Source: Mustelus asterias (lineage: Eukaryota). From it: a stretch of 64,000 nt of DNA. The stretch is taken from positions 145,762,001 to 145,826,000 of the forward strand of contig NC_135805.1 of assembly GCF_964213995.1 (NCBI RefSeq). The letters are read 5' to 3'. The notes under the pieces were generated by a model. It was not told the DNA's origin and did no database searches. It saw nothing but the letters and a program-made list of their open reading frames with translations. Position 1 is the stretch's first letter; each line of letters starts with the position of its first letter. Both the position numbers and the translations under genes were made by a program. Below, one piece after another: positions 19,980 through 63,732 of the stretch.

Positions 19980-21462
19980 TATTTGAGGTCGTCGTTGGCC
20001 TCTGGTATAGTACCAGAAGATTGGAGGTTAGCGAATGTTGTCCCATTGTTTAAGAAGGGGAACAGAGACTTCCCCGGGAATTATAGACCGGTGAGTCTCA
20101 CTTCTGTTGTCGGCAAGATGTTGGAAAAAATTATAAGGGATAGGATTTATAGTTATTTGGAGAGTAATGAATTGATAGGTGATAGTCAGCATGGTTTTGT
20201 GGCAGGTAGGTCGTGCCTTACTAACCTTATTGAGTTTTTTGAGAAAGTGACCAAGGAGGTGGATGGGGGCAAGGCAGTGGACGTGGTATATATGGATTTT
20301 AGTAAGGCGTTTGATAAGGTTCACCATGGTAGGCTTCTGCAGAAAATGCAGATGTATGGGATTGGGGGTGATCTAGGAAATTGGATCAGGAATTGGCTAG
20401 CGGATAGGAAACAGAGGGTGGTGGTTGATAGTAAATATTCATCATGGAGTGCGGTTACAAGTGGTGTACCTCAGGGATCTGTTTTGGGGCCACTGCTGTT
20501 TGTAATATTTATTAATGATCTGGATGAGGGTATAGTTGGGTGGATTAGCAAATTTGCTGATGACACCAAAGTCGGTGGTGTGGTAGACAGTGAGGAAGGG
20601 TGTCGTAGTTTGCAGGAAGACTTAGACAGGTTGCAAAGTTGGGCCGAGAGGTGGCGGATGGAGTTTAATGCGGAGAAGTGTGAGGTAATTCACTTTGGTA
20701 GGAATAACAGATGTGTTGAGTATAGGGCTAACGGGAGGACTTTGAATAGTGTGGAGGAGCAGAGGGATCTAGGTGTATGTGTGCATAGATCCCTGAAAGT
20801 TGGGAATCAAGTAGATAAGGTTGTTAAGAAGGCATATGGTGTCTTGGCGTTTATTGGTAGGGGGATTGAATTTAGGAGTCGTAGCGTTATGTTGCAACTG
20901 TACACAACTCTGGTGCGGCCGCACTTGGAGTACTGTGTGCAGTTCTGGTCCCCACATTACAGGAAGGATGTGGAGGCTTTGGAGAGGGTGCAGAGGAGGT
21001 TTACCAGGATGTTGCCTGGTATGGAGGGGAGATCCTATGAGGAGAGGCTGAGGAATTTGGGATTGTTTTCGCTGGAAAGGCGGCGGCTAAGAGGGGATCT
21101 TATTGAAACATATAAGATGATTAGAGGTTTAGATAGGGTGGATAGTGATAGCCTTTTTCCTCTGATGGAGAAATCCAGCATGAGGGGGCATGGCTTTAAA
21201 TTGACGGGGGGGTAGTTATAGAACCGATGTCAGGGGTAGGTTCTTTACCCAGAGGGTGGTGAGGGATTGGAATGCCCTGCCAGCATCAGTAGTAAATGCG
21301 CCTAGTTTGGGGGCGTTTAAGAGATCCGTAGATAGGTTCATGGACGAAAAGAAATTGGTTTAGGTTGGAGGGTCACAGTTTTTTTTTTTTTAACTGGTCG
21401 GTGCAACATCGTGGGCCGAAGGGCCTGTTCTGCGCTGTAATGTTCTATGTTCTATGTTCTAT
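19980..21462 (+). mobile_element. Young 5'-truncated CR1 LINE
   Basis: 410-aa open RT frame (19983-21215) and (TTCTATG)n tail. Near-identical to 50185-51520. Confidence 0.95.
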
Positions 21463-33183: not shown

Positions 33184-33708
33184 AACTAGGACTTTACTAT
33201 TTTCACCTTTTCCCAATTTTAAGTTGAATTCAATAGGCAACTCCCCTAGGTTGACAGACTCCCCTGGTATAAACACACCCCTGATATACACATTCCCAAG
33301 GTTTAGACACACCCCTGCTATAATCATTCCTCTGGTCTATACACTCTCCTGTTTTGCACACTCCCCTTGCTTTGCATACTACCCTGGTTTACACACTCCC
33401 CTGATTACACACTCTACTGACTGACACACTCCCCTGCTTTACATGTTCCCCTACTTTGCGCACTCCCCTGGTTTGTGCACTCCCTTGGTTTACACACTCC
33501 TCTGATTTGCACACTGCCCTAGCTTGCACACTCCCCTGGTTTCCTCACTCCCCTGGTTTGTGCACACTTCCTGGTTTACACGCTCCTCTGGTTTGCCCAC
33601 TGCCCTGGTTTACGCACTCCCCCGGTTCATGCAGTTTCCTGGTTTGTTCGCTCCCCTGGTTTTATCTCCCCTGGTTTGAATACTTCCCTGACTGATACTC
33701 ACCACCAG

Positions 33709-34279
33709 TGTTGTGGGGAAAATCCACTAGTAGTCAGACTTCGAGATTCAGAAAATACGATTTATTAAACGGAGCTCCGGGAGGTAAGGCACAAGTTCGT
33801 AGAACACCTTTTCTCACTAGTATGTCGGGAGTGGTTCATTTTTATACCCTTTACACAATGGGTAAGCTGGTGATTCGAACATTATAACATTGTTTAAGTA
33901 AGTACAAGCAGGTATAGACATTTAACATTTTATGAATGGGTACATTTCCTCATGTCTGTATCTGTCAATGGTCAGTTTCGTCTCATTCAGGTGCTAATTG
34001 GTTTCCTCGCATTCATATTTTCCCGCGTTAATCTAAGCTCATTGTTTCGGGTTTTCCTTATCTTAAAAGATGTTTTGACCCTTGGCTTGGCTTCCTGAGG
34101 TGTTTGTTTGCTATGAGTCACTGTCTGTGATTTGGGAATGGCTTGTCTGTTAGGTTTTGATTTAAAGTGATTTCTGAACAGCGGGAGCCTGTGTCTCCTT
34201 TTTGGCTTCTTTCCCAGTTAACCCTTTATGTGCCAGGCAGCCATTTTAAAGTGTGCTCCCTTGTATTTTTCCCCTTACA
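33709..34279 (-). mobile_element. Solo LTR (family X), inverted relative to 37116-37703
   Basis: Reverse complement starts TGTAAGGGGAAAAA and ends CCCCACAACA. TATA- and AATAAA-like signals. Flanks CCAG/CTAG. Confidence 0.75.
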
Positions 34280-34800
34280 CTAGTAAACACACCCCGGTGG
34301 TTTGCACACTCCTTTGGTTTGCACATCCCCTGGTTTGTGTACTCCCCTGCTTTACACCCTCCCCTGTTTACCAATCTCAAATAGTAAACTCACTCCCCTG
34401 GTTCACACATTCCCCTGATTAACCACATCCCCTTGTAAACACTCCCCTGATTTAAACAGTCCCCTGGTTTGTGCACTGCCTTTGCCTACACACTCCTCTG
34501 GTTTACAAAGTCCTCTGGTTTACACACTCCCATGGTATGCACACTCCCCTGGTTTGCACACACCCTGTCTTGCGCACTCCCTGGTTTGTGCACTCCCCTG
34601 GTTTGCACAGTCCCTGGTTTAGACGCACTAGGTTGTGCATTCCCCTGATTTGCACAATTCCCTGGTTTGCACGCACTTCTCATTTCATGCACTCCCCTGA
34701 TTTACACACTCCCCTGATTTACACACTCCCCTGGTTCGCACACTACCCTGGTTTGCACACACCCCTCGTTTATGCACTCTCCTGGTTTGCACACTCCCCT

Positions 34801-35667
34801 TGATGGGGGATAGTATCGAATTCTAGTATCAGGCCCTTCATTTTACTTTTACCATATTAAGTAGACTAGATTAAGGTAATTGTAAAGTGCCTTATATATT
34901 TATATATAATATGTAATTCACAATTTGCCTGGAACAAAATATGCAAAGCTATTATAAATTGCAAAGGTATTAGAAACTATATATCCACAAATTAACCAAG
35001 TATTATAAGCTTAAACTGTATTTTGAACCATGTATTGTGTGTCTTGGCCAACGTTGTTCTGAATGCAGCATGATGGGAAACACAGTGGTAGACAATTCAA
35101 ATTCTGTTAATACAATGGAACACAGAAAAACAGCTTCTGTTATCTGTTTTTGGATATGCGAAAGGTAAGTTTACTCACAGGCCTAGTATGTAAGGGAGTG
35201 GATTCGTTCATGAGGAGCGAAGCTGGAGCAGTCTCTCAAGCTGAGAAAGGAGGCCCAGGTTCACAGGTGTTGGCTATGGCCTTGGTTACTGGTAATGACG
35301 TGGGCTAGATTTCCTAGGTAAAGGGGAAGGAACCTACATGGGCAATAAGTTAATAATTTCCTATTCCAGTTGACAGGTGGAACGTTATTGGCTGAGGTAA
35401 TAATGTGTGATGTTGTGATTGGGCCTCCAGTCTGACTGCTGAGACGAGGTGGGATATTGAAATGTTCAGAATAATATAATAATTTTACATAGCAATATTA
35501 GGTCAGAGAGCACAGTCAACCCTCAATGACTGTGTCTCTCTCCTGATGCATGCATTAGCAAATTAATTCATTTTCATTCTTTCAATATATGTAGTCTATA
35601 TATTGATTGAGGTTCAACAAATACAGGGCACCCCAAGAGGAACACCCTTCAGAAAATTCCTCTTACA
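34801..35667 (+). mobile_element. Solo LTR (family Y), 867 bp, 5-bp TSD
   Basis: TG...CA termini and CCCCT duplicated at 34796-34800 and 35668-35672. TATA-like ATATATAA at ~35474. Orientation is inferred. Confidence 0.75.
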
Positions 35668-37115
35668 CCCCTGATTTGCATACGCCCCTGATTTGCACGC
35701 GCCCCTGATTTGCACACTCTCCCAGTTTGCACACTGCCTTGATTGACACAGTCCCCTAGTGTGAGCACTCCCCGGGTTTGCACAGTCCTCTGGTTTGCAC
35801 ATTGCTCTGGTTTGTGCACTCGCCTGGTTTACACACTCCCCCAGTTTACACACTCCCCTAGTTTACACACACCCCTGGTTTCTGCACTCCCTTGGTTTGC
35901 ACATTCCCCTGGATTGTGCGCTCCCCTGGTTTGTGCACTCCCATGTTTTGCACCCACCCCTGGTTTGCCCACTCCCCTGGTTTGCACACTTTCCTGGTTT
36001 ACACACTCCTCTGAATAACACACTCCCTGGTTTGCACAATCTCCTGATTTGTACAGTCCCCTGGTTTGTGCACTCCCATGTTTTGCACCCACCCCTGGTT
36101 TGCCCACTCCCCTGGTTTGCACACTTTCCTGGTTTACACACTCCTCTGAATAACACACTCCCTGGTTTGCACAATCTCCTGATTTGTGCAGTCCCCTGGT
36201 TTGTGCACTCCACAGGATTGTGCACTCCCCTAGTTTGTGCACTCCCCTAGTTTGTATATGTCCCTGATTTGCACACTCTCCCAGTTTGCACACTGCACTG
36301 GTTAACACAGTCCCGTATTGTGTGCACTCCTCTGGTTTGCACATTTCTCTGGTTTGTGCACTCCCCTGGTTTACACACTTCCCTGGTTTACTCACTCCCC
36401 TGGTTTACACACTTCGCTGGTTTACACACTTCCCTGGTTTACACACTCCCCTGGTTTCTGCACTCCCTTGGTTTGCACACTCCCCTGGATTGCGCACTCC
36501 CCTGGATTGCGCACTCCCCTGGATTGCGCACTCCCCTGGATTGCGCACTCCCCTGGATTGCGCACTCCCCTGGATTGCGCACTCCCCTGGATTGCGCACT
36601 CCCCTGGATTGCGCACTCCCCTGGATTGCGCACTCCCCTGGATTGCGCACTCCCCTGGATTGCGCACTCCCCTGGATTGCGCACTCCCCTGGATTGCGCA
36701 CTCCCCTGGATTGCGCACTCCCCTGGATTGCGCACTCCCCTGGATTGCGCACTCCCCTGGATTGCGCACTCCCCTGGATTGCGCACTCCCCTGGATTGCG
36801 CACTCCCCTGGATTGCGCACTCCCCTGGATTGCGCACTCCCCTGGTTTGCGCACTCTGCTGGTTTGCACACTCCGCTGGTTTGCACACTCCTCTGAATTG
36901 CGCACTCCCCTGGTTAACACAGTCCCTGTTTTGCACAATCTCCTGGTTTGCGCAGTTCCCTGGTTTGTGCAGTCCCTTGGTTTGCGCAGTTCCCTGGTTT
37001 GTGCACTCTCCTGGTTTATACACTCCCCTGGATTGCGCACTCCCCTGGTTAACATACTCCCTCTTTTGTGCAATCTCCTGGTTTGTGCAGTCCCCTGCTT
37101 TGCACAGTTCCCTGG

Positions 37116-37703
37116 TGTAAGGGGAAAAATGTAAGGAAAGCACACTTTAAAATAGCTGCCTGGCACATAAAAAGTTAACTGGGAAAGGAACCATAAAGCA
37201 GACACCGGCTTCCACTTATACAAAGATCACTTCAAATCAAACCCAACAGACAAGCCATTTAAAAATCACAGTGATTTAAAGTAAACAAACACTTCAGGAA
37301 GCCAGCCAAGGATCAAGACATCTTTTAGATAAGGAAAAAACCCGAGGCAAAGGGAATAGATTAGTCATAGGAAGAGCGGGAAAATATGAATGCAGGAAAA
37401 CCGATTAGCACCTGAATGAGCCGAAACCAACCATTGATAGCCACAGACATAGGAAATGTACCCATTCATAAGAACAATACTATGTCAAATGTCTGTATCT
37501 GTTTGTATCTGCCTTTAACGATGTGATAATGTTCAAATCTCCGGTCCATCTATTGTGTAGAAAGTATAAAGATGGACCGTTCCCGTCATTTTACTGAGAG
37601 AAGGTTTGCTACAGACTTGTGCCTTGTCTCCACGGAGCTCTGTTGAATAAACTGTGTTTTGGAATCTCGAGATCTGACGACTAGTGGATTTTTTCCCACA
37701 ACA
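37116..37703 (+). mobile_element. Solo LTR (family X)
   Basis: TGTAAGGGGAAAAA...TTCCCACAACA, TATAAA at 37565, flanks CCTGG/TCTGG. Diverged homologue of 33709-34279. Confidence 0.78.
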
Positions 37704-38169
37704 TCTGGATTGCACACTCCCCTGGTTCACGCACTCCCCTGGTTTGCGCATTCCTCCGGTTTGCACACTCATCTGGTTTATGAAGTCCCCTGGTTCACGC
37801 AGTCACCTGCTTTGAGCACCGCCTTGGTTTATGTCCTGCCTGCTTTTAAATATTCCCCTGGTTTTAAACGCTCCCCTGCTCTGCACAGTCGCCTGATAAA
37901 CACAATCCTCGTAAAGTCCACTTCTCTGATCTGTTTCAAAAGCAATTCTATCCCCCTTTGTGAATGTACCTATGCTTGCACCACAGTTATGCACTGTGAT
38001 ATGCATGTATTCTAATGCTGTATTCATACCGCATCTGACATCCTTTGCTATGCATGTGTCAGTATCAGAGTCGTAGATTGTTATAGCATGGAAACAGGCC
38101 CGTCAGCCCAACTTGTCCATGTAAACCAGTTTGTGTAATAGTGCTCTTCATTCTGATATTGACACAGAG

Positions 38170-39403: not shown

Positions 39404-39677
39404 ATCGCTTCTTGGACTTTTGGCTCAGATCAAGTGTAGTATCTGTTGATCAAGTGTAGTATGGATAGGGTGCTGCACTTTGTTGAGGCCATTAGGTTAC
39501 ATTTAAGCTTCATATTCATATGAAGCAATTTTTTAAAGCGGCATCTCGGCCTTTTGCCTTGGAGGAGGAAACCTCAGGCCCAAGACAGGAGTGGATCAGC
39601 TTGGATCGGAAATGTCTCAACTTGTTGAGATTCTGAATTGGACTTGATTTGATTGAATTGGAATAAAAATACAAAAA
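39404..39677 (+). mobile_element. U2 snRNA-headed retroposed element (candidate snRNA-derived SINE)
   Basis: 39404-39447 matches U2 nt 1-44 (3 mismatches), 39448-39462 repeats U2 nt 25-39, 39541-39556 resembles U2 nt 4-19. Ends in AATAAA and an A-rich tail. Precisely absent from the paralogue at 59713/59714. Confidence 0.8.
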
Positions 39678-40308
39678 AAAGGTGCACAAAGTAATTTCAT
39701 GAACACACATCTGATTGGCCGCTGCTGGGGAGTGAGGTTAACACACAATATGTGGAGCAGAAAATACAGAGAGATTAACAAAGTGAATGGAGAATTTACA
39801 ATTAACCAACATAATTGGGGAAAGTGTCGAAGAGAACGACAATATGCCCTGGGAAGTTTAAATTACAAAAACATTTTAGCATGGGATTGTGTAGATGTGA
39901 ATATTGTGCAGGAGAGAGTGTGTGATAGGGGAGGGAGAAACAGAAGAACATCACTGTGTTTGTGTGTCCGTTCAGATCATGAGATCTCCGCATCATTCTT
40001 GTGTAAAACGCAAATATTTTTCAATCAAATTCTCCCCCTGTATCCCTCCTACTTCTCAAAGTTAGATTTCAATGCAGTTTCTAGGTCGATTTCCACATTT
40101 CAGCCGAAAACTGAGGAAGATGACAGCGATGGGGTGAGAGAGCGCGAACAGTACAACAGCGAAACGGGATTTAATCCTTAATGCAGCCTTCAATCCGGGT
40201 GAAATCTTTTATACAACATACACTAAAGTGTCAGGCACAGTGAGGATTGAACCTGGGACAACGTGGAGCCGGGATTTGAGTGGAAATTGAGAGTTTGGGA
40301 CGAGAGAG

Positions 40309-40460: not shown

Positions 40461-41078
40461 ATGAGCGACAGTGCAGCCGCCGAAACGGCTCCTCCAGCCG
40501 CCGCCACAGGCAAGACAGCCAAGAAGAAAAAGGCAGCAGCTCCCTCGAAGAAAGCAACAGGTCCCAGTCTGGGCGATCTGATCCTCCAGATCGTGGCGGA
40601 ATGCAAGGATCGCACGGGAATCTCCGCTGCCGCCATCAAGAAGGAGCTGCGGAGCAAAGGGGTGGATGTGGAGAAACGGGTGGCCCTGATCAGGCAAAGT
40701 TTAAAGAGGAATGTGGAAAATGGAAAGCTGATTCAGCTCCGTGGGACTGGCGCCTCCGGCTCCTACAGAATCGCTCAGAAAACAGCGGAGCGGAAAACTG
40801 TAAAGAAGGTAAAGACAGGAGCGGCCAGGAAAACCCCAGTGAAGAAAGCGGTGGCCAAGAAAGCAACAAAGAAACCAGCAACAAAGAAATCGGCAACGAA
40901 GAAACCCACAGCCAAGAAAACAGTCAAGAAAGCAATCAAGAAGGCGACTCCAAAAAAGAGCGTGAAGAAAGTAACACCCAAGAAAAAGATTGTTGTGAAG
41001 AAGGTCGCGAAGGGAAAGACATCAAAGGCCAAACCCAAAGCGGCAGCAGCAAAGTCTAAGAAAGCAGGAAAGAAGTGA
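40461..41078 (+). CDS. H1: Linker histone H1 (205 aa)
   Basis: ATG at 40461. Winged-helix domain ending GTGASGSYRI, Lys/Ala/Pro-rich tail with TPVK/TPKK motifs, followed by a stem-loop. Confidence 0.95.
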   Translation: MSDSAAAETAPPAAATGKTAKKKKAAAPSKKATGPSLGDLILQIVAECKDRTGISAAAIKKELRSKGVDVEKRVALIRQSLKRNVENGKLIQLRGTGASGSYRIAQKTAERKTVKKVKTGAARKTPVKKAVAKKATKKPATKKSATKKPTAKKTVKKAIKKATPKKSVKKVTPKKKIVVKKVAKGKTSKAKPKAAAAKSKKAGKK

Positions 41079-41114
41079 AATACACCGAGCAAATCCTAAA
41101 CCTCTTAACCCAAA

Positions 41115-41130
41115 GGCTCTTCTCAGAGCC
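41115..41130 (+). terminator. Histone 3' stem-loop of H1
   Basis: GGCTCT TCTC AGAGCC-ACCCA with AATGAGCTG downstream element. Confidence 0.93.
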
Positions 41131-41844
41131 ACCCACCTCTCTCAGGAATGAGCTGAACCCCCCGCGGTCAATGAATCGCTGTCCCGGCGCTGGGAGCAGA
41201 TTTCAGATAGAAATGTCAATCCAATATTCCCGCTCACTCGCTGACATGTTCTAGACCCGGACCCCCCTCACACTCTGCACTCAAACACAGGGATGTTGCT
41301 GCCTCTCCCTGACCCGGGAATGGCTCCAGGGGAACACTCACACTTTGTGTTAGTTTGTTTATTCACAGATTCAGGGTGTGGGTGTAAAAGAGGAATCCTG
41401 GCGGAGAAAGCCCACCTCACAACTCAAACCCCAAACGCATTTTATCAGCTGGGAGAGATCTGAATAAAATTCTCAACCCGTCTGGAAGAGGAGTTGTCGG
41501 GAATGGAACAGGAGGTGGGATTGAAATGGGAGGAGGCAGTTCGACAGGTTATAGAAAGGATTGCACTGAGGCGGAATGTTACTGACAAGTCTGGATTGAA
41601 TAGATCGGGTTCCTAACTAGCTTGTATCTGATATTCCAGTTTGTACGTTTTCTTCTAAAATATTGGTTCGAGCCGGCAGGAGGAGGAGCTGGATGGTGAA
41701 AGACATTTCACTGCTCTGTCTGTCTCTCAGTCCCCTCCCCGCCCCGCCTCTCTCTCTCTCTCTCTTTCTCAGTCAGGTCGGGGCGAGCTGTATAATAAAG
41801 GAAGCTGCAGCTGCTCCTCTCTCATTCAGCAGCGATTTGACTGA

Positions 41845-42165
<321 letters not shown>

Positions 42166-42198
42166 ACAAGTCCGCTCAATTCTCACACAAAACCCAAA

Positions 42199-42214
42199 GG
42201 CCCTTTTCAGGGCC
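42199..42214 (+). terminator. Histone 3' stem-loop of H4
   Basis: GGCCCT TTTC AGGGCC. Confidence 0.95.
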
Positions 42215-43035
42215 GCCCACATCCTCACATTGAGAGCACTGACCTCAGTACAGCAGCGGGCTCTTTCTACATCTCGAATTTCATGCAACTTTATCATCTC
42301 TTTAGGGATCGGACCATTCTGCATTATCCCTGTGACAATCCTGTTACACAACAAGCTGGACATTATTGCTGCCTGTTTCAGAGCCGCTCACGTTTAGAAC
42401 TCTGACCTTCGAGCAGGAGCCAGTATTTAAATGTTTGGCAGCATCCCTTTTTCCAATTATATTTCAACTTATGAAAGGGTAGATTACGCATTCACCCTGT
42501 GTGTGTCCCATTATGTGGAAATGCAACACCGCTCCAAAAGCTAGTGGCGTTTGCTACCAAATAAAATTTGGACTTTAACCTGATGTTGTTCGACTCCTTA
42601 CTGTGTCCCATTAAACAACAATGTCACAATTATTGCTGTCCATTTCAACATTTGTGTGAGGATGGAAAGACTGGCTTTGAGATAGCAAAATAGTGAACAG
42701 AATGTGTAAGATTGCAAAACTTCCTGCAATTTCCTGTTAATCATTTATTACCATGAACATTTGTGGATATTTTAAGCAGTTGTATCTTTTTATTCCATTC
42801 CTTCAATCGGTTTGCAGGGATTTCACTCCCTTCGACCGTCTAAAGCTGTTTTTTAATCATTCCTTCAATCCACAGAATCCCTGCAGTGCAGAAAGAGGCC
42901 ATCCTTCATGGTGGTGTGTGTGACACTGTTTTGCGCCTATCACTGGGAGTTTGCTCCCAGCCTGTTCTGGCTCTATCACGGAATGAATCTGAATGTGTTC
43001 CTGGTGCGAAGGCTGTGAGGAAAAGTTTGCAGTGA

Positions 43036-43651
<616 letters not shown>

Positions 43652-43700
43652 ACTGCCCGGACCCACTATTGGCCTTTCAAATCCAAAAATAAACCCAAAA

Positions 43701-43716
43701 GGCTCTTTTCAGAGCC
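43701..43716 (+). terminator. Histone 3' stem-loop of H3
   Basis: GGCTCTTTTCAGAGCC-ACCA with AAAGGAG downstream. Confidence 0.95.
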
Positions 43717-43959
43717 ACCAAATCCATCAAAAGGAGCAGTAATCGGCGTGTTGTGCGTCTTCGGTTCCAGGGTACCTGGTATTTACTAACTCCCAATCCG
43801 ATTTTGCAGCTGTTGAATCAAGAGTAAGCCATTTTTATATTGCGAATACAACAAATGGGGGGATATGGGCCTCGTTCAGCCGCCCGTCCAGCGATCTGGA
43901 AGAAATTATTCCAGATTTCCAAGTCGCATGCAGGGGAAGAGCCTCTGTTTCTGCTGTAA

Positions 43960-44170
43960 TATGGTTTCATTCATGGGCTGTCGGTTTCTCTGCGCTTCTG
44001 TTGTCCCAGATTGCATATGGGTTTGAAATTCATATGGGTATGCATGGCAGTTTCCAAAAGGCAGATTTTGTTGTCCTAACCCATTCCATCATCTGCATGG
44101 TGGGATTCGAACCTTTGTGTTCTCCGGAGTATTATCATAGGTCTCTCTTGCGCTCCGCCACTGCCTCCCT
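43960..44170 (-). mobile_element. Highly degenerate tRNA-derived SINE head
   Basis: Reverse complement contains GGGAGGCAGTGGCGGAGCG...GGTTCGAATCCCACCATG (B box). No complete cloverleaf. Confidence 0.5.
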
Positions 44171-44555
44171 CTTCCACTCCAGTTACGGAGTTCACGTAAT
44201 AATGAAAGATTCCCTTCGGATATTGTGTCTGTGCGGGCCACCCAGCACCTATACATTCTAAACCCATTTTCCAGCAATTAGCTTTGCTGGCTTATTTGAC
44301 TGTCCTTCGTTTGGAGGTTGCCGTGCAGGTTAAAGCCATTCGGCTATTCGAGTCCGCAACGACAAAAGATATGCGAATTAGGAAGATTGCCCATTCGAAA
44401 TTGCCCCTTGTCCGAGGAATTGGCAGGGTTCATACATGGGGTAATGGGGATCGGGCATCGATGAGCAGAATGGCCTCCTGCACTGCAGGGAGGAATCCCT
44501 GATCTAACATCTGCTCCATAATTCCACGTATTTACCCCGCTTTTCCTCTACACAT

Positions 44556-44822
<267 letters not shown>

Positions 44823-45541
44823 TTATTCCAAAATAAAATTCACATCCAAAATAAAGGCGGCAACCTTGCGGAATCTAAACTTTTAAAGTAAACCGTCGAT
44901 GTATTTGTAAGTTAAGGAACAAGTTACAAATGGAAATTAGTCCGAAGTTAAACTATTGAATGAACAAGATTTACAATGTCGTCCTACCTCTTTCTAATGG
45001 TCTAAATTTAGTCACAAATTCCAAATTAATTTTTACAATCCCGAGTATGATCAAGATGAATCTGGCAATTGTTTAAACCAGCCTGACCAGGAGCCAGAAT
45101 GTCTCATTCACCGCCCCCTGCAAATAGTCTAATGTATCCATTTTGTAATAGGCTACAAATTCAGTGTCAAAAGCGGAGTTTTCACTTTTGGTGCCAGCTT
45201 GCCAATATGGAGACTGAAGTTTCGACACCAGTAAGGTTGATGTTTAGCAAACTGATCGACAATTGAGAACATTCTTTAACTCAAAGAAACGGACGCATTT
45301 CCGATTTATTCGCTCTCTGTGCAAACCCAGCGACAAGGGCGGATATCAGAGCGCAGCCAGGGTCACCGAGCAGCCACTAAATGTAGCGACTTTACGAACA
45401 AAACACGAAGATCCACGGGACTCATTCTGCATCACTCAATACTCAAACTCATTAGAAAATCAAGTTCAAAGTGCATTCTTATTGACGATAAAAAAATCAA
45501 TTACTAAAAGTGGGCTTAGCTACTTCACAGAAGTTGTGGGT

Positions 45542-45557
45542 GGCTCTTAAAAGAGCC
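45542..45557 (-). terminator. Histone 3' stem-loop of H2B
   Basis: Reverse complement is GGCTCTTTTAAGAGCC-ACCCA. Confidence 0.95.
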
Positions 45558-45587
45558 GTTGTGTTTTATTCAGTGCATTGTGCAGTT

Positions 45588-45968
45588 TTACTTGGAGCTG
45601 GTGTATTTGGTCACCGCCTTTGTCCCCTCCGACACGGCGTGCTTGGCCAGTTCCCCGGGCAGCAGCAGGCGCACGGCGGTCTGGATCTCCCGGGAGCTGA
45701 TGGTGCTGCGCTTGTTGTAATGGGCCAGGCGGGAAGCTTCACCCGCGATGCGCTCGAAGATGTCGTTAACGAACGAGTTCATGATGCTCATGGCCTTGGA
45801 GGAGATGCCGGTATCGGGGTGAACCTGCTTCATCACTTTGTAGATGTAGATGCCGTAACTCTCCCTCCTGGACCTCCTCTTCTTCTTGCCACTCTTGGTT
45901 GTCGGTTTCTTCAGGGCTTTCTTGCCGCCCTTCTTGGAAATTTGCTGTTGCTTCTTATCCTCACCCAT
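45588..45968 (-). CDS. H2B: Histone H2B with divergent N-terminal tail (MGEDKKQQQ...)
   Basis: ATG at 45968. Core protein identical to the 15152-15529 copy. Octamer at 46046-46053 and CCAAT boxes upstream. Confidence 0.96.
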
Positions 45969-47027
45969 TCTCGCCTTCAATTTCAGAAAAGCAATAACTG
46001 GAGCGGGCCCCAGAACTCAGTATTTATCGACTCAGACAAGGCCCAATGCAAATGAAGGATTGGGGAGGACAACTTTCCCCATTGGCTGATTCACAATGAT
46101 GTCAAATCGCAATGTTCTATCTGTCACTGATTGGTTACTTTCGATAGCCAATCAGATTCACTGCTCGTCACAGCCACAATGTCAGAATGACAGAGGTTTG
46201 GCAGTGCAGTGGGCTATTCGACTCATCCTGTCTATACTGTCTCCGGATTTGCAACTCACCCAGTCCCCGTTCTCCTGCCTTCCCTTAGGAACATTGCACA
46301 ATCTTTCTCTTCACAGAACAGCTTATTCCAAATGTGAACTCTTTCTTTGAACCAGCCTCCATAATACTCTCAAGCGGGGCATTGCAGTCTGTAACCATCC
46401 CCTGCATCAACATATTTTTCTTTCACATTGACAAGCAGTCATTTCAGTTCCGTGTTCCCACCTGCCTGATTATGTCATGCGGGGTGTAATTTCTCCAAAT
46501 TAACTCAGCCCATGCCCCTCAGGGGTTTGAGAGCCTCTACCTAATCTCTCCGCTGTCACTTCTCCAAGGAAGTTTGGACTTGTCCATTTTGTGCATCACT
46601 GAATCCCTTTTTTTAAACCCCATTCTTAAAGTTACAAAGCCAATACTGAGAATGGACAGGACGGAATCATATCCATTCCTTGTGCGGTGACACTGCACTA
46701 CCGATATGTTTTATGTTTAAGAGGGAGTGCTTTAACGTTCAGTGTCTTGCTACGAATATTTGGCTTGTCTGAAAGGAATACAACAGATGCTGGAAAACAG
46801 GATAAGTACTCATTTTCGTCATGTAAGTCTTTATTTAGCAGGAGACTGAATGAGTTTGTTTACCAAAAAAGAGGACCTTTTTTGGGCTTTGCTAATAGGG
46901 GCAGAGAGTACAAGAACAATGGAGCTTTGTTCAATTTGCACAAGTCACCTGTATGCCTCAGCAGGAATGTAGGGTCCTGTTCGGTGCACCCGACGTTAGA
47001 AAGCATGTGAAGACCTTGGAGGGATTG

Positions 47028-47647: not shown

Positions 47648-47779
47648 CTTGCTCCAAACCCAAATTCAAATCGAATTGGATCTAAACCATGTTTCGCAGA
47701 GGAGAGACAAACAAGATCCAAGCTGACAAGATAACTCACTGCATCCCATCTTTGATTTGATCAAACACATGATCTCAGG

Positions 47780-50184: not shown

Positions 50185-51520
50185 CATAGAACATAGAACA
50201 TAGAACATTACAGCGCAGAACAGGCCCTTCGGCCCACGATGTTGCACCGACCAGTTAAAAAAAAAAACTGTGACCCTCCAACCTAAACCAATTTCTTTTC
50301 GTCCATGAACCTATCTACGGATCTCTTAAACGCCCCCAAACTAGGCGCATTTACTACTGATGCTGGCAGGGCATTCCAATCCCTCACCACCCTCTGGGTA
50401 AAGAACCTACCCCTGACATCGGTTCTATAACTACCCCCCCTCAATTTAAAGCCATGCCCCCTCGTGCTGGATTTCTCCATCAGAGGAAAAAGGCTATCAC
50501 TATCCACCCTATCTAAACCTCTAATCATCTTATATGTTTCAATAAGATCCCCTCTTAGCCGCCGCCTTTCTAGCGAAAACAATCCCAAATCCCTCAGCCT
50601 CTCCTCATAGGATCTCCCCTCCATACCAGGCAACATCCTGGTAAACCTCCTCTGCACCCTCTCCAAAGCCTCCACATCCTTCCTGTAATGTGGGGACCAG
50701 AACTGCACACAGTACTCCAAGTGCGGCCGCACCAGAGTTGTGTACAGTTGCAACATAACGCTACGACTCCTAAATTCAATCCCCCTACCAATAAACGCCA
50801 AGACACCATATGCCTTCTTAACAACCTTATCTACTTGATTCCCAACTTTCAGGGATCTATGCACACATACACCTAGATCCCTCTGCTCCTCCACACTATT
50901 CAAAGTCCTCCCGTTAGCCCTATACTCAACACATCTGTTATTCCTACCAAAGTGAATTACCTCACACTTCTCCGCATTAAACTCCATCCGCCACCTCTCG
51001 GCCCAACTTTGCAACCTGTCTAAGTCTTCCTGCAAACTACGACACCCTTCCTCACTGTCTACCACACCACCGACTTTGGTGTCATCAGCAAATTTGCTAA
51101 TCCACCCAACTATACCCTCATCCAGATCATTAATAAATATTACAAACAGCAGTGGCCCCAAAACAGATCCCTGAGGTACACCACTTGTAACCGCACTCCA
51201 TGATGAATATTTACTATCAACCACCACCCTCTGTTTCCTATCCGCTAGCCAATTCCTGATCCAATTTCCTAGATCACCCCCAATCCCATACATCTGCATT
51301 TTCTGCAGAAGCCTACCATGGTGAACCTTATCAAACGCCTTACTAAAATCCATATATACCACGTCCACTGCCTTGCCCCCATCCACCTCCTTGGTCACTT
51401 TCTCAAAAAACTCAATAAGGTTAGTAAGGCACGACCTACCTGCCACAAAACCATGCTGACTATCACCTATCAATTCATTACTCTCCAAATAACTATAAAT
51501 CCTATCCCTTATAATTTTTT
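50185..51520 (-). mobile_element. Young 5'-truncated CR1 LINE
   Basis: Open RT frame to the natural stop at 50283 and (CATAGAA)n tail. About 5 differences from 20124-21460. Confidence 0.95.
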
Positions 51521-54194
51521 CCAGGTGTGGCCTCACCAACCTATACAATTGCAGTAAAACATCCCGATTCCTACACTCAAATCCTCTTTCTATCAAAAAA
51601 AAGTACAGAACAGGAACAGCTCCAAGTCTGTGCCAATCATGATGCCCAAACTAAGCTTAAAATAAACCTGCTGGACTTTAACCTGGTGTTGTGAGACTTC
51701 TTACTGTGACCACCCCAGTCCAACACCGGCATCTCCACAACATAGAAGATCATGGACAGTTGGTACATGGAAATCACACCACATGCAAGTTCACCTCCAA
51801 TTCAAACACCACTATGACTTGAAATTCTATCACCATTCCTTCGTTGTCATTGGAGTAAAATATTCACTCTTCCTACCTATCTCGAACATGGCTGTACCTT
51901 TCGCAGACAGCATGGTGCAAGGAGGTGGTTCTAAGATGACTAGTGCAGAACAAATTGCTCACCTTTCTCTGTTCAAAGAACAAATATCATCAGTCTGGTA
52001 AGTGATCGGTATGTGAAATACATTTGATCTGCATCTGTTCATCACTGGTTTATAAGTCATTCTATATATGTGGTTGTGGGATGAATTTTCATCATTCTTT
52101 GAGTTCGTTTGTGAGGCTTTGTCTCCTTCAATATCGGCTACTTTTTTTTCTGTCATTTTCTGGTATGTGTGCATGAATACAATTCAATATTAGATTGTCG
52201 CTGGGATGACTGCAACTAAAGGATTCATGCTGTATGTTCCAGCTCCTTGAGATGCACATGCATGAGATGTGTTCTGTATCTGTCACACTCATTTATGTTT
52301 TTGTGATTGTATGATTTATTCTCTATCTGTCAGTTTTGGTACTTTGTGCACATATAGGATTCACTCTGCAGCACTCAGTCCCCAATCACAATGTACGAGA
52401 GATCATGTTTTTTTTTTAGTCTTATCCTATGTGAATGTTGTTATCAATCTGTACCTTTCTGTAATTGTGATCTTCAGTCCTTGGGAGACTGTCAGCGTGG
52501 CTCTCTATTTTTATCACTTCAACTTAAGGGTGTGAGTGTCATCTATTGCAGCTGTGTTGTTATGGCCTTAATTCTGCAAATGTTAGGCCCTCCATTGGAA
52601 TGGGAGTGTGGTTTATATTCACTATCTTGTCCTGTACACCAGTATGGCCTATTTTCTCTTCCTGCCATTCTCTGTTAATAAATCTGAAAGATAGTTTACT
52701 TCTGTACCTGTCAGTCCGTGTGCTGTATGTGAAAGGTCTGTACATTATGTATAGTTTTCTCTATGATACAGTGTCTGAGATTGAGATGAGTTAAGTACCT
52801 GTTTGCCCATGGAATCAAATACAATGTTGTGATCTATTATGCGTTGAAGTCTCCAACATTACAGGTGAATGTTACATTGTGAAACTTTCAGTGCCTGGAG
52901 GTGAGTGTGAGTTTAGTTCTACATTAGTTCCACATTCATCAGTCATTACCCAGGTGCATGTGTGCCTGATTCATATATGTCTCTGCTACTGTATATAAAT
53001 ATTATTTACATTCTGGATCTCTCAGACATGGTACTGTGTATGAAAGCAGGAATAATCCTACACGGTTACTTTGTATTTCTCTATTGTGTCCATTACAGAT
53101 TCATTTGGCTTCAATATTTCCTGTGTAAATGAGAGCCTTTGCGTTTCATTTGTCCTTTCTTTCAGCTTTCCTTGAAGTGTAAAATAGTCTGTAATTATAT
53201 TTTCCCATTTACTATGGATCTAATGATCTGGTAGTATCGCTGTGCTTTGTGAGTCACACCCTACCTGCTGTGTGTTGGAACCAGCTCCCTGCACTTGTCC
53301 TTCTTTCAAGGTAGCATCTGCCTCAGCAATCATTTGTCATTTGTTTCCTTCCAGAGCTCCTAACTCTGAAGAATAGGCAAGCTCGAAGGCAGAAAAGTGG
53401 TCAAATAATTAATCATAATAGTAAAACCAGTTAAAATCAGTATCTGAGCCCATCACAGTACTACAGCAATCAGTTCCTGCTTCATCTGACATTCTTTGAT
53501 GGGTGGGATTGAGAATCAGTCTTTCCAGCATACTGCTGCTTCATATGGGCTATCCAGATCAGGCTGAGATTTCAGCAAGGGTCAGATTTAAATTTGCAGC
53601 TCTCTTTTAACTAACTGTGCAGTGGGAAACAAGTCATAGTCAGACAGTTAGAGTTTTACAGAACAGCTCGATGCCCTTCGGCCCATCGTGTCTGCACCAG
53701 CCATCAGGCGCCTGCCTATTCTAATCCCATTTTACAGCCCCTGCTCCATTGCCTTGCTTGCTATGGTATTTCAGGTACTTGCCTAAATGCTTCTTAAATG
53801 TTGTGAGGTTTACTTTCTCCACCAGCCCCTCTGAATCACCTTCTACTTAACTTAAATCTTTAACACTTATTATTGACCCATCTACTCAGGGAAAATATTC
53901 CTTCGACCTCTCCTATGTATGTCCCTCATAATTTTGCACACCTTGAAGTTTTACCCTGTTCAGCCTTCTCTGCTCTAAGGAAAGCAACCCCAGCTGATCC
54001 AGCCTCATTTCACAGCAGAAATGCACCAGTATAGGCAACCTCCTGGTGAATCTCCTCGCAATATTTTCTGCTGTAATTACTTCCTTCCGATAATGTGGAA
54101 ACCAAAACTGCGTACAGTACTCTTGGTGTGACCTAACCAACATTTTACACTTCCAACCTAATCTCCCAATGTGTACATTGGGTGGTCCAGTGTC

Positions 54195-57071: not shown

Positions 57072-59050
57072 TCACCTTGGTTCACACGCTCCCCTGGTAT
57101 ACGCATTCCCCTGATATACGCACCTCCCTCGTTTGTGCACCTCCCTGGTTTGTGCACTCCCCTGGTTTGTGTACCTCCCTGGTTTGTGTACCTCCCTGGT
57201 TTGTGCACCTCCCTGGTTTGTGTACCTCCCTGGTTTGCACACTCCCCTGGTTTGTGCCCTCCCCTGGTTCATACATACCTGTGTGTGCACATTCCCCTGT
57301 TATATACACCCCCCTGTTTTACACACTACTCTGGCTTGCTCATTCCCTTAGTTTACACATTCCCCTGGTTTGCACACTCCTCTCGTTTGTGCACTCCCCT
57401 GGTTTGCGCAGTGCCCTGTTTGCGCAGTCCCCTGGTTGCGCACTCCCCAGGTTTGCGCAGTCCCCTGGTTGCGCACTCCCCAAGTTTGCGCACTCCCCTG
57501 GTTTGCATGCTCCCCTGGTTTATGCGCTTCCCTGGTTCACACACACCCCGGGTTTGTGCACTCCCCAAGTTTGCACATTCCCCTGGTTTGCACACTCCAC
57601 TGGTTTTGATTTGATTTGATTTACTATTGTAACATATATTAACATACAGGGTAAAGTATTGTTTCTTGTGCACTAAACAGACAAAGAATACCATTCATAG
57701 AGAAGGAAACGAGAGAGTGCAGAATGTAGTGTTACAATCATAGCTAGGGTGTAGAGAAAGATCAACTTAATGCAAAGTAAGTCCATTCAAAAGTCTGACA
57801 GGAGCAGGGATGAAGCTGTTCTTGAGTCGGTTGGTACATGATACGGTTGTGTATTTTTCCCGAAGGAAGATGATGGAATCGCGAATGTCTGGGGTGCATG
57901 GAGTCCTTAATTATGCTGGCTGCTTTGCCGATTAAGGAGGAAGGATAGACAGTGACAATGGATGGGAGGTTGGTTTGTGTGATGGATTGGGCTACATTCA
58001 TGGCCTTTTGTAGTTCCTTGTGGTCTTGGGCAGAGCAGGACCATACCAAGCTGTGATGCAACCAGAAAGAATGCTTTCTATGGTGCATCTGTAAAAGTTG
58101 GTGAGAGTAGCAGCTGACATGCCAAAATTCCTTCGTCTTCTGAGAAAGTAGAGGCATTGGTGGGCTTTCTTAACTAAAGCATCAGCATGGGAGGACCAGG
58201 ACAGGTTGTTGGTGATCTGGACACCTAATAAATTGAAGGTCTCGACCCTTTCTACTTCATCCCCGTTGATGTAGACAGGGGCATGTTCTCCTTTACACTT
58301 CCTGAAGTTGATGACAATCTCCTTCGTTTTGTTGACATTGAGGGGGAGATTATTGTTGCTGCGCCAATTCTCCAGATTCTCCATCTCATTCCTGTACTCT
58401 GTCTCATCATTGTTTGAGATCCGACCCACTACGCTGGTGTCGTCAGCAAACTTGAAAATCGAATTGGAGGAGAATTTGGTATATAAGGAGTATAGTAGGG
58501 GGCTGAAAACACAGCCTTGTGGGGCGCTGGTGTTGAAGATGATCGTGAAGGAGGTGTTGTTGCCTATCCTTACTGATTGTGGTCTGTGAGTTAGGAAGTT
58601 CAGGATCCAGTCGCAGAGGGAAGTGCCGAGGCCCAGGCCACGGAGTTTGGAGATGTGTTTCATGGGACTAATAGTGTTGAAGGCTGAGCTGTAGTCAATC
58701 AATAAAAGTCTGACATAGGTGTCCTTGTTATCTAGGTTTGCACACTCTCCTGGGTTAATACACTCCCCTGATTTACACACTCCCCTGGTTTGCGCAATCC
58801 CTGAGTTTACACATACCCTTGGATTTAACACTTCCCTGGTTTGTACTCTTCCCTCCTTGCACATAATCCTCTGGTTTACACACTCTCTCCTCTTACTCAC
58901 TGTCCTGGTGTGCACATATCCCCAGGTATACATGTTCCCCAATTTGCACACCACTGGTATACGCACTTCCCTGGTTTCACAAACTCGCTTGATGTTACAC
59001 AGTCTCTGGTTTTAAACATCCTCTGGTATACATAGTCCCCTGTTTTACAA
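57072..59050. repeat. 17-bp minisatellite array, second copy, interrupted by a LINE
   Basis: GCACACTCCCCTGGTTT-like units at 57072-57606 and 58736-59050. Confidence 0.93.
57607..58735 (-). mobile_element. Rex1/Babar-like LINE, 5'-truncated
   Basis: ORF 57998-58966 contains [51 protein letters not shown] and FADD. (GATTT)n tail at 57607-57622. Confidence 0.88.
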
Positions 59051-59624: not shown

Positions 59625-60501
59625 TCTGTGTTACTGAGCAGTGCAAGTGGATAAACTCAAACTGGAAAATTTCGAGGTTTAGTGAAGAGATCATTTGCAT
59701 TTTCACCTTGAAGAAAGGTGCACGATCAATGTAATTTTATGAAAACACATCTGATTGGCTGTTGCTGGGGAGTGAGGTTAACACACAATATGTGGAGCAG
59801 AAAATACAGAGAGATGAACAAAGTGAATGGAGAATTTACAATTAACCAACATAACGGGGGATAAGTGTGGAAGAGAGCAACAATATGCCCTGGGAAGTTT
59901 AAATTGCAAAATCATTTTAGCCTGGGATTGTGTAGATGTGAATATTGTGCAGGAGATAGTGTGTGATAGGGGCGGGGGAAACAGGAGAACATCACTGTGT
60001 TTGTGTGTCCGTTCAGATCATGAGATCTCCGCATCATTCTTGTGTAAAACACAAATATTTTTCAACCAAATTCTCCCCCTGGATCCCTCCTACTTCTCAA
60101 AGTTAGATTTCAATGCAATTTCCATTTCGATTTCCAACTTTCAGTCGAAAACTGAGGAAGATGACAGCGATGGGGTGAGAGAGCGCGAACAGTACAGCAG
60201 CGAAACGGGATTTAATCCCAAATGCAGCCTTCAATCCGGGTGAAATCTTTTCTACAACAGACATTAGGATGTCAGACACAGTGAGGATTAAACCTGGGAC
60301 AATGTGGAGCCGGGATTTGAGTGGAAATTGAGAGTATGGGACGAGAGAAAAACACAGAGAAGGCAGCAGCAGCCTGGAGCTGACAGCAGCTTGTCTCCGC
60401 CCCGTCCGCTCGCTGCCTTTAAGTTGCTCAGTGCCGCCGCCAGACGCTTCATTTCTCATCCAGTTCACATTGACGGAGTGATTTGGTGCAGAGTTCCAGA
60501 C

Positions 60502-61146
60502 ATGAGCGACAGTGCAGCCGCCGAAACGGCTCCTCCAGCCGCCGCCACAAGCAAGACAACCAAAAAGAAGGCAGCGGCTCCCTCGAAGAAAGCATCAGGT
60601 CCCAGTCTGGGCGATCTGATCCTCCAGATCGTGGCGGAAAGCAAGAATCGCAAGGGGATCTCCGCTGCCGCCATCAAGAATGAGCTGCGGAGCAAAGGGG
60701 TGGATGTGGCGAAACGGGTGGCCCTGATCAAGCAAAGTTTAAAGAGGAATGTGGAAAATGGAAAGCTGATTCAGCTCAGTGGCATTGGCGCCTCCGGCTC
60801 CTACAGACTCGCTCAGAAAACAGCGGAGCGGAAAACTGTAAAGAAGGTAAAGACAGGAGCGGCCAGGAAAACCCCAGTGAAGAAAGCGGTGGCCAAGAAA
60901 GCAACAAAGAAACCAGCAACAAAGAAAACGGCAACAAAGAAACCCACAGCCAAGAAACCAGCAGCCAAGAAACCCATCGCGAAGAAAACAGTCAAGAAAA
61001 CAACCAAGAAGGCGACTCCAAAAAAGAGCGTGAAGAAAGTGACACCCAAGAAAAAGATTGTTGTGAAGAAGGTCGCGAAGGGAAAGACATCAAAGGCCAA
61101 ACCCAAAGCGGCAGCAGCAAAGTCTAAGAAAGCAGGAAAGAAGTGA
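60502..61146 (+). CDS. H1: Linker histone H1 (214 aa)
   Basis: ATG at 60502. Paralogue of 40461-41078 with a 10-aa insertion in the tail. Confidence 0.95.
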   Translation: MSDSAAAETAPPAAATSKTTKKKAAAPSKKASGPSLGDLILQIVAESKNRKGISAAAIKNELRSKGVDVAKRVALIKQSLKRNVENGKLIQLSGIGASGSYRLAQKTAERKTVKKVKTGAARKTPVKKAVAKKATKKPATKKTATKKPTAKKPAAKKPIAKKTVKKTTKKATPKKSVKKVTPKKKIVVKKVAKGKTSKAKPKAAAAKSKKAGKK

Positions 61147-61182
61147 AATACACCGAGCAAATCCTAAACCTCTAAACCCAAA

Positions 61183-61198
61183 GGCTCTTCTCAGAGCC
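61183..61198 (+). terminator. Histone 3' stem-loop of H1
   Basis: GGCTCT TCTC AGAGCC-ACCCA. Confidence 0.93.
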
Positions 61199-61943
61199 AC
61201 CCACCTCTCTCAGGAATGAGCTGAACTCCCCGCGGTCAATGAATCGCTGTCCCGGCGCTGGGAGCAGATTTCAGATAGAAATGTCAATCCAATATTCCCG
61301 CTCACTCGCTGACATGTTCCAGACCCGGACCCCCCTCACACTCTGCACTCAAACATAGGGATGTTGCTGCCTCTCCCTGACCCGGGAATGGCTCCAGGGG
61401 AACACTCACACTTTGTGTTAGTTTCTTTATTCACAGATTCAGGGTGTGGGTGTAAAAGAGGAATCCTGGCGGAGAAAGCCCACCTCACAACAAACCCCAA
61501 ACACATTTTATCAGCTGGGAGAGATCTGAATAAAATGCTCAACCCGTCTGGAAGAAGAGTTGTCGGGAATGGAATAGGAGCTGGGATTGAAATGGGAGAA
61601 GTCAAGTTTGACTGGCTACAGAAAGGATTGCACTGAGGCGGAATGTTACTGACAAGTCTGGATTGAATAGATCCGGGTTCCTAACTAGCTTGTATCTGAT
61701 ATTCCAGTTTGTACGTTTTGTTCCGCGCGCTTTTTTCACTTCTGTTTGAATTTGAATCCAAAATGTCGGTTCGAGCCGGCAGGAGGAGGAGCTGGATGGT
61801 GAAAGACATTTCACTGCTCTGTCTGTCTCTCAGTCTCCTCCCCGCCCCGCCTCTCTCTCTCGCTTTCTCAGCCAGGTCGGGGCGAGCTGTATAATAAAGG
61901 AAGCTGCAGCAGCTCCTCCCTCATTCAGCAGCGATTTGACTGA

Positions 61944-62264
<321 letters not shown>

Positions 62265-62295
62265 ACAAATTCACCCAATTCTCACAAAACCCAAA

Positions 62296-62311
62296 GGCTC
62301 TTTTCAGGGCC
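62296..62311 (+). terminator. Histone 3' stem-loop of H4 (U-G wobble in stem)
   Basis: GGCTCT TTTC AGGGCC. Confidence 0.9.
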
Positions 62312-62451
62312 GCCCAGATCCTCACATTGAGAGCACTGACCTTGGTACAGCAGCGGGCTCTTTCTACATATTGAATTTCATGCAGCTTTATCATCTGTTT
62401 CGGAATTGGACCATTCTGCATTATCCCTGTAACAATCCTGTTGCACAAGCT

Positions 62452-62937: not shown

Positions 62938-63181
62938 AGAAAGAGGCCATCCTTCATGGTGAAGTGTGTGTGTGACACTGTTTTGCGCCTATCACTGGGA
63001 GTTTGCTCCCAGCCTGTTCTGGCTCTATCACGGAATGAATCTGAATGTGTTCCTGGTGCGAAGGCAGTGAGGAAAAGTTTGCAGTGAAATTGGCGGTATT
63101 TTTGGCGGTGAATTTTGAAAAACAGGCGCCATCCGAGCTCAGCCAATCAGAGCTGGCAGCCTGTGGTTGCTATGAGGGTGA

Positions 63182-63703
<522 letters not shown>

Positions 63704-63732
63704 AAACCGACCTCAACCCCCAATCCAAAAAA

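Follow-up and report, generated by a model that had tools for sequence, protein, structure and literature searches.

Introduction

Short interspersed elements (SINEs) headed by small nuclear RNA (snRNA) sequence have been described under the name SINEU, and the available part of that description (PMC4494074) places them in crocodilians only, where they target Mariner-N4_AMi and are moved by Tx1-Mar, the question of their transcription being left open. Transcription of snRNA-headed SINEs is still called undemonstrated in the accessible portion of PMC5786205. U2 snRNA genes, in turn, are used as target by the retrotransposons Keno and Utopia, which share one U2 site according to the accessible text of PMC4640811.

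We have analysed a stretch of 64,000 nucleotides from Mustelus asterias (assembly GCF_964213995.1, contig NC_135805.1, positions 145,762,001 to 145,826,000), hereafter called the window, which contains an insert beginning with U2 sequence. The insert represents a single, damaged member of a dispersed, U2-headed SINE family with thousands of copies, termed here family A, the reality of which is near certain. Family A shows the features by which SINEU is structurally defined in the part of PMC4494074 available (an snRNA head, short length, an A tail and a link to Tx1 elements), and it is by description that we set it beside SINEU. As in SINEU-1, -2 and -3, the head derives from U2, an A tail is present and the length is below 500 nt. 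Both groups also have a 3' end not shared with a LINE (compared with Keno in the case of family A), repeated addition of 5' snRNA pieces, tandem copies around target site duplications (TSDs), internal T runs and a Tx1-clade partner from the Keno-clustering group (PMC4494074). On the other hand, family A differs from SINEU, as described there, in having a U2-targeting partner, copies in U2 genes behind the upstream flank, the absence of a U1 part, and a predicted masking of the head by an antisense arm. A second U2-headed family of the same genome, family B, resembles SINEU-3 in its plan of a U2 5' part, a U2 middle part and a unique tail (same source).

No description of a U2-headed SINE in cartilaginous fish was found in the literature outside subscription papers and Repbase Reports, and the term 'snRNA' is absent from the available part of PMC5499810, which deals with chimaera and shark SINEs. 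Family A extends SINEU-type elements, here apparently of independent origin, beyond crocodilians, and it may already have been catalogued in Repbase or Dfam.

Anatomy of the window insert

The insert lies within a histone-gene cluster, with an H1 ORF ~780 nt downstream. The replication-dependent histone genes of the window (H1, H4, H3 and H2B ORFs with 3' stem-loops) occupy positions 40461–45968, 60500–63800 and 11300–15400, in blocks duplicated ~20 and 30 kb apart, and the two paralogous blocks both contain arrays of a 17-bp minisatellite (33240–37880 and 57089–58842). The window also harbours an inverted pair of 1,090 nt (20122–21211 and 50434–51523), the 100% complementarity of which suggests a very recent insertion or conversion. 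The parts of the insert and its empty counterpart are the following:

39404–39447, + strand: extra piece of U2 nt 1–44 before a 5'-truncated family copy, with a junction found at the window locus only
39448–39462, + strand: family head cut down to U2 nt 25–39
39470–39498, + strand: anti-U2 arm, for which pairing with the head (U2 nt 11–39), rich in G-U pairs, is predicted
39507–39526, + strand: hairpin 2
39527–39534, + strand: conserved U run between two hairpins, Sm-site-like, without the following G
39541–39556, + strand: second U2 fragment, forming the 5' arm and loop of hairpin 3, the 3' arm of which is deleted (23 nt)
39557–39573, + strand: 5' arm of hairpin 4, the 3' arm of which is deleted in the window copy (33 nt)
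39574–39607, + strand: remnant of hairpin 5, with a 12-nt deletion between 39595 and 39596, homologous to the hairpin of family B
39615–39630, + strand: hairpin 6, alignable to the family B segment corresponding to U2 nt 67–85
39662–39680, + strand: AATAAA (39662–39667) and A-rich tail, the final three A of which may be common to the target
59706–59723, + strand: empty site in the paralogous histone-cluster block, with the junction between 59713 and 59714

The segment 39404–39447 corresponds to U2 nt 1–44, with three mismatches to the genome's own U2 (nt 10, 13 and 23), and is followed at 39448–39462 by U2 nt 25–39 again, so that GTAGTA occurs twice in the window copy. Rfam recognises the window head as U2 with 47.2 bits, the gathering score being 46. 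The A run ends at position 39680. An initial reading made from the letters of the window alone (the sequence-only reading) had described the start at U2 nt 1, the repeat with its two GTAGTA motifs, the second U2 piece at 39541, the hairpins at 39507–39526 and 39615–39630, the AATAAA and the A-rich tail, and all of these were present. The empty paralogous site between 59713 and 59714 was likewise found; a contig from run X15 also shows an empty paralogous site, with 39401 joined to 39716.

A dispersed family with inherited structure

The genome searched consisted of 5,313 contigs totalling 3.68 Gb. A 32-mer taken from the undeleted body had 2,891 exact matches, a lower bound for the copy number of family A, and its reversed control none, while the insert itself as query retrieved 2,721 candidates on many contigs, 40 of which were scored. 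The unit measures ~325 nt (about 290–330) and consists of U2 nt 1–38, a structured body and an A-rich tail. U2 identity stops at nt 38/39 in most subfamilies and at about nt 35–37 in a few, AATAAA is present in some subfamilies only, and runs of four to five T occur inside the unit. Full copies have a longer second U2 piece, with U2 nt 7–27 lying within a hairpin, and its high conservation is biased since many aligned rows were selected on it.

Among 59 loci, made up of the 29 best hits and an unbiased set of the first 30 pattern matches on contig C1, 25 showed a TSD of at least 8 nt, compared with 0.5 on average and at most 4 over 200 shuffled pairings. Hence, the lack of a clear TSD reported by the sequence-only reading stands for the window copy but not for the family. 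The upstream unit started within U2 nt 1–13 in 27 of the 30 unbiased loci (exactly at nt 1 in 7), no common 5' extension beyond U2 +1 was found in these 30, and 6 of them were tandem clusters with target sequence between the units. The undeleted body was also detected in contigs of two other organisms, X3 (59 contigs) and X5 (90 contigs).

The flanks of the sampled loci appeared unrelated by eye. The 2,891 matches, TSDs and A tails bear out the proposal that the insert is a mobile, multicopy retroposon rather than a simple truncated pseudogene or a one-off chimera. Alignment of 79 units resolved several subfamilies, with a mean pairwise identity of 90% and a median of 97% to the nearest neighbour. 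Head–body junctions and loop sequences were specific to subfamilies, indicating that family A is an inherited transposing unit and not a sum of chimeras. In this it is unlike the U6/U2-L1 chimeras described in the accessible part of PMC4494074, since the family A unit is inherited as a whole. An independent origin of the copies, by fusion of U2 RNA to the 3' end of some longer LINE or transcript (U6-L1 type), is hardly credible: the one-off head of the window copy would suit it, but it is largely refuted by the inherited, subfamily-specific junctions and loops, and it fits poorly with the U2 head in 27 of 30 unbiased loci, with a body unlike Keno and with the fact that the longer donor was not seen.

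A classical RNA polymerase III SINE was considered and rejected, as Rfam gave U2 as the only credible match at three loci and the T4–T5 runs are internal. No credible match to a ribozyme or to another Rfam family was found in the family A body.

The window copy as an unusual member

The window copy is ~95–96% identical to its nearest family copies and, judged from the assembly sequence only, lacks 23, 33 and 12 nt with respect to a close full copy. Each of these deletions begins in the loop and takes the 3' arm of a predicted hairpin (3, 4 and 5, respectively), a pattern which likely reflects skipping by the reverse transcriptase. A perfect octamer, ATGCAAAT, located at about nt 140 of the family A unit and also found ~200 nt upstream of U1 genes in the same genome, is deleted in the window copy.

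The doubled U2 head, at first taken for a feature of the family, proved to be particular to this copy. A doubled-head pattern had six matches (one in the control), four of which were SINE copies with four different junctions and two of which were due to chance; the window junction was unique among the six, and none of the 30 unbiased loci had a doubled head. Extra U2 pieces ending between nt 40 and 56 were present in 9 of 77 heads scanned, although most of these heads came from searches biased to them and one, L017, was read through one mismatch. Duplications at U2-embedded insertions reach nt 52 (L066 and L130) and nt 58 (L139), that is, the same range as the ends of the extra pieces, making possible a source inside U2 with a short duplication. 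Two origins are conceivable for the extra U2 nt 1–44 of the window copy: a U2-inserted source bearing a 6-nt duplication, or a switch of template to U2 RNA. The latter mechanism has been proposed for SINEU-2, and the U6/U2-L1 chimeras and 3'-truncated U2 pseudogenes treated in the same source may offer an explanation for the additional piece (PMC4494074, available part).

U2 genes and their Keno-like LINE

Tandem U2 arrays with periods of 1,833 bp and 8,035 bp are found on contig C24, and a second type of U2 gene is repeated with a 448-bp period on C21. Both array types are occupied by a LINE with two ORFs, the A tail of which is joined to U2 nt 38/39, the Keno 3' target as quoted in the available part of PMC6136364. 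In this LINE, ORF1 combines a zinc knuckle with RNA-binding domains of the ZCCHC3 type, and ORF2 encodes APE, RT and zf-RVT domains, the RT region being 46% identical to P0052, 'transposon TX1 uncharacterized 149 kDa protein'. The element begins with a U2 nt 1–33/35 head of its own. Target site, domains and this one named homologue suggest that it is a Keno-like Tx1 element. Exact 3' ends of this LINE numbered 286 genome-wide and U2 sequence came next in none of the first 30, indicating that most insertions of LINE and SINE are off-target; the U2 preference of the LINE is real, but relaxed and not strict. Keno appears as U2-specific in the accessible parts of PMC4640811, PMC6136364 and PMC4494074, whereas the LINE described here is widely dispersed. 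Utopia, despite its identical U2 site, has an RLE endonuclease where the partner found here has APE, and its reptile families have 20-bp TSDs, in agreement with the duplications, extending as far as U2 nt 58, observed in this genome (PMC4640811, accessible part).

Several other features of these regions deserve mention. The second U2 type (L130–L133, G000:C21:28.05–28.08 Mb) has a distinct 3' half and promoter flank and is heavily hit by Keno, while the 8,035-bp unit (L061, G000:C24:44.81–44.94 Mb) comprises a single intact U2 gene together with a single interrupted Keno and has been amplified at least 16 times. Nine U2 units on C24 (L113:4725, 6574 and 8423; L114:7581; L115:1244, 6759 and 8602; L116:455 and 7803) have nt 38–48 replaced by one or two repeats of nt 18–37 and therewith lack GTAGTA and the Keno site, possibly as the scar of a failed insertion spread by array homogenisation. 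The Keno 5' UTR is predicted to fold onto its own U2 head by means of an arm unlike that of the SINE (L131:3321, L141:1310–1524), with a weaker energy, of −20.0, that lies within the shuffle range (shuffle minimum −22.7); L141 is a dispersed Keno carrying 92 nt of U2 upstream flank. At L132:5120–8380, a 3.2-kb GATTG-type satellite stands in place of part of a Keno copy, and its unit resembles the last 25 nt of the SINE, probably through low complexity.

Association between the SINE and Keno

A pattern combining the tail with the U2 site yielded 13 matches (control, 6), ten of them SINE-type tails at U2 nt 38/39 and three of them chance. Seven of the ten tails have the SINE body directly upstream, one has an interrupted body and two are tail remnants. 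When 30 Keno 3' ends were followed in the order of the genome, seven had the SINE within 1.5 kb, against an expectation of 0.07–0.24 that assumes 2,891–10,000 SINE copies. At L169, a SINE, a Keno fragment and another SINE follow each other with one target sequence present four times; at L176, Keno and then SINE stand around a single target; and at L217 an older Keno 3' end is immediately followed by one family B copy.

A LINE sharing the 3' end of the SINE, envisaged by the sequence-only reading, did not emerge from the comparison with Keno, the only LINE family compared with that end, which scored 24 versus 19.6 ± 3.9 for shuffles; a common SINE–Keno tail, plausible by eye, was thus not significant. 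Derivation of the body from the Keno 5' or 3' UTRs, as in a non-autonomous Keno derivative, gave scores within the shuffle range. In the absence of significant 3' likeness, another Tx1 or L1 family could also mobilise the SINE. Both elements share the U2 site and a U2 head, the LINE having in addition APE and RT, while the SINE is non-coding and has no significant sequence in common with Keno beyond the head. Nevertheless, the shared U2 site and the shared TSD clusters provide circumstantial evidence that family A is, very probably, mobilised by a Keno-type LINE. The suggestion that the element was born from a U2 gene hit by a U2-targeting LINE is therefore supported as to the LINE, a Tx1 element with a shared site, but not as to the body, which has no significant match to the Keno UTRs.

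SINE copies behind U2 promoter flanks

Exact patterns joining the U2 upstream flank to the head matched 42 times for type 1, four of the matches being SINE copies, and 13 times for type 2, with seven SINE copies of which two are one duplicated insertion. Copies behind a U2 promoter flank, the kind of source locus foreseen by the sequence-only reading, do exist, and total 11 among thousands. Native U2 flank of 240–300 nt or more precedes the SINE at L066:1851, L144, L139 and L142. The first of these, at the end of the C24 array, has upstream 500 nt near-identical to those of U2 genes and shows the order U2 upstream region, U2 nt 1–40, SINE body, truncated Keno, second SINE and U2 nt 38–191, the second SINE having a duplication of U2 nt 39–52. 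In the C21 array, L144 consists of type-2 flank, full SINE and U2 nt 38–185, and L139 and L142 have the same layout away from the U2 arrays. A motif, TGT(N)AA(A)GA(T/G)G, was recognised by eye near position −52 of U1 as well as of the two U2 types, and each U1 and U2 gene is followed by a sequence that, by eye, we take to be 3'-box-like.

An 870-nt cassette (L135, which includes L139) formed by promoter, SINE and U2 nt 38–58 has a TSD on both sides, implying that an embedded copy itself was retrotransposed along with its flank; L135 and L142, with U2 flank on the 5' side and U2 nt 38 onwards on the 3' side, indicate that embedded copies did move. Besides, five dispersed insertions (L122, L123, L124, L140 and L150, identical to L151), plus L149, retain 4–93 nt of U2 upstream flank. 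They belong to several subfamilies, as expected if sources repeatedly sat in U2 genes, and most have a further U2 piece in front; such short flanks could also be template switches to 5'-extended U2 RNA. Embedded copies carry private changes, L066:1851 being rearranged and L144 altered even at nt 1. No embedded copy was linked to offspring, and these private changes would count against the embedded copies as sources.

Proposed cycle and alternative origins of the RNA

The reading we favour, with a probability of roughly two in three, is that the window insert is a damaged SINE copy inserted by Keno-like proteins, and that source copies residing in U2 genes and using the U2 promoter would be the main route of transcription. 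The Keno endonuclease would nick a U2 gene near nt 38, and the U2 head of the SINE cDNA, matching the upstream target, would allow an integration that restores promoter, U2 nt 1–38 and body. RNA polymerase II would then initiate at U2 +1, and Keno proteins would prime on the A tail of the transcript, their relaxed specificity giving rise to scattered, promoterless copies, while rare copies landing again in a U2 gene would become new sources. The anti-U2 arm would meanwhile cover the positions of U2 used for pairing with U6 and with the branch point.

Non-autonomous derivatives of R2 reside in 28S rDNA. R2 is co-transcribed with its 28S rDNA target (cited in PMC4494074, available part), and in both R2 and, as inferred here, the SINE, a promoterless element would be transcribed from the multicopy RNA gene that it targets. 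The SINE is unlike R2 in that the promoter would be that of a Pol II snRNA gene and not a Pol I promoter, no ribozyme was found and most copies are off-target.

A less likely alternative is that Keno-mobilised copies receive their source RNA mostly by read-through from host genes or other flanking promoters, the U2-embedded copies being mainly dead ends and the U2 +1 ends arising through processing or repeated template switching. Some of the thousands of dispersed copies surely lie inside transcribed regions, the embedded copies have private changes, and the extra U2 pieces with their varied junctions resemble the repeated head addition of SINEU-2, read-through having been raised by Kojima for SINEU (PMC4494074, available part). 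By contrast, read-through is difficult to reconcile with the 5' ends, which in 27 of the 30 unbiased loci coincide with U2 +1 or lie shortly inside it and lack a common extension, and also with the movements of the embedded copies at L135 and L142. The only recurring 5' extensions are U2-gene flanks, although those were what was searched.

Transcription from U2 genes is also preferred over an internal promoter. In HeT-A, one element copy drives the next in a head-to-tail pair, and the octamer ATGCAAAT together with 3' sequence of family A might act in the same manner. The octamer occurs in 69 of 79 units, a biased figure because half of it belongs to the selecting pattern, and it lies ~200 nt before the start of the next unit, as does the octamer upstream of U1; moreover, 6 of 30 unbiased loci are tandem. 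We consider this arrangement quite improbable, since the target duplication between tandem units, which often belong to different subfamilies, fits serial insertion, no PSE-like motif was seen by eye at −52 of the next unit, and copies extended on the 5' side by the tail of an upstream unit were not noticed outside tandem clusters. Serial insertion of tandem copies has also been described for SINEU-3 (PMC4494074, available part).

RNA folding and masking of the U2 head

Full copies fold better than their shuffles (z −9.9 and −4.9), as does the window copy (−3.1). Body nt 46–75 are predicted to pair with U2 nt 11–39. In 63 of 68 copies, the mean pairing probability of U2 nt 25–36 exceeded 0.8, compared with nearly 0 for the same region of native U2. 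The head–arm duplex, at −28 to −37 kcal/mol, lay beyond all 300 shuffles in each of eight units. Many of its pairs are G-U, and common variants preserve pairing, though transition bias favours that. The RNAalifold consensus did not contain the head hairpin, probably owing to misalignment of the variable loop, and its covariation term was weak, at −0.95 kcal/mol, with 4 of 61 pairs changed on both sides. Tried as a plain DNA inverted repeat in one unit, the anti-U2 arm was not significant, unlike the RNA duplex.

The bases of the U2 head that are predicted to be masked include those pairing with U6 and with the branch point. The anti-U2 arm is thus predicted to hide them in a hairpin and not to leave them exposed, against the guess of the sequence-only reading about a transcript carrying U6- and branch-point-pairing sequence, and head masking would keep the SINE RNA out of splicing. 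Aberrant snRNAs are degraded and, if not, can disturb splicing (PMC13573567, available part); such harm offers a possible reason for masking and is no evidence that masking takes place here.

The U run between hairpins 2 and 3 is kept in 40 of 40 aligned rows and is aligned by cmscan to the Sm site of U2. A canonical Sm site has the form RAU4-6GR and is single-stranded; family A has an A-A-U run between hairpins without the G of the consensus. Of 21 matched family B copies, 4 keep the Sm region as it is in U2 and 11 have a variant with G for A. One might take the strong folding (z −9.9 and −4.9), the conserved U run and the presence of the body in contigs of other organisms as signs that the source is a U2-like snRNA gene kept by host selection for a cellular function, the dispersed copies being its processed pseudogenes. 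Such an origin is, however, extremely unlikely, considering that the U2 regions read contain no array of intact, homogeneous SINE genes, that subfamilies turn over rapidly (mean pairwise identity 90%) and that embedded copies include an A tail.

Family B and the origin of family A

Family B, which is older than family A, had 883 exact matches, with hits 88–91% identical to the query. Its monomer of ~220 nt consists of U2 nt 1–31/35, one hairpin, a segment matching U2 nt 44–154 and a unique tail; the U2 nt 44–154 match, including the Sm region, scored 47 versus 19.3 ± 3.2. Family B is devoid of GTAGTA. In the window, a family B copy on the − strand (46620–46682 and 47648–47762) is split by an insertion of ~970 nt.

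The 3' half of family A matches family B with a score of 90 versus 19.4, which gives family A the appearance of a module derived from family B to which a new 5' module with a U2 head was joined. Within family A, hairpins 4 and 5 are duplicates (33 versus 12.9). A direct match of the 3' end of family A or of hairpin 2 to U2 was not significant, the link running via family B. The order of these events is deduced from the comparisons.

Taken further, these data would be compatible with a Pol II SINE lineage that parasitises U2 genes and Keno alike, homes to U2 arrays, where it restores a source equipped with a promoter, is capped and handled like an snRNA and has had its head disarmed twice; we propose this broader scheme tentatively and regard it as doubtful. 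Under such a scheme, an Sm-like site with snRNP export and re-import would give the RNA access to Keno proteins, and disarming would have come about by loss of the branch-point sequence in the older monomer and by masking of that sequence with an antisense arm in the younger dimer.

Implications

The passage from the monomer of family B to the dimer of family A is reminiscent of the history of Alu. For genome annotation, thousands of family A copies can score as U2 in Rfam (47–49 bits for a cut-off of 46). With named U2-embedded loci as candidate sources and dispersed copies that carry U2 flank, our findings offer a concrete transcription route for snRNA-headed SINEs, and they suggest a way in which a mobile RNA may bear the catalytic 5' end of U2 without disturbing splicing.
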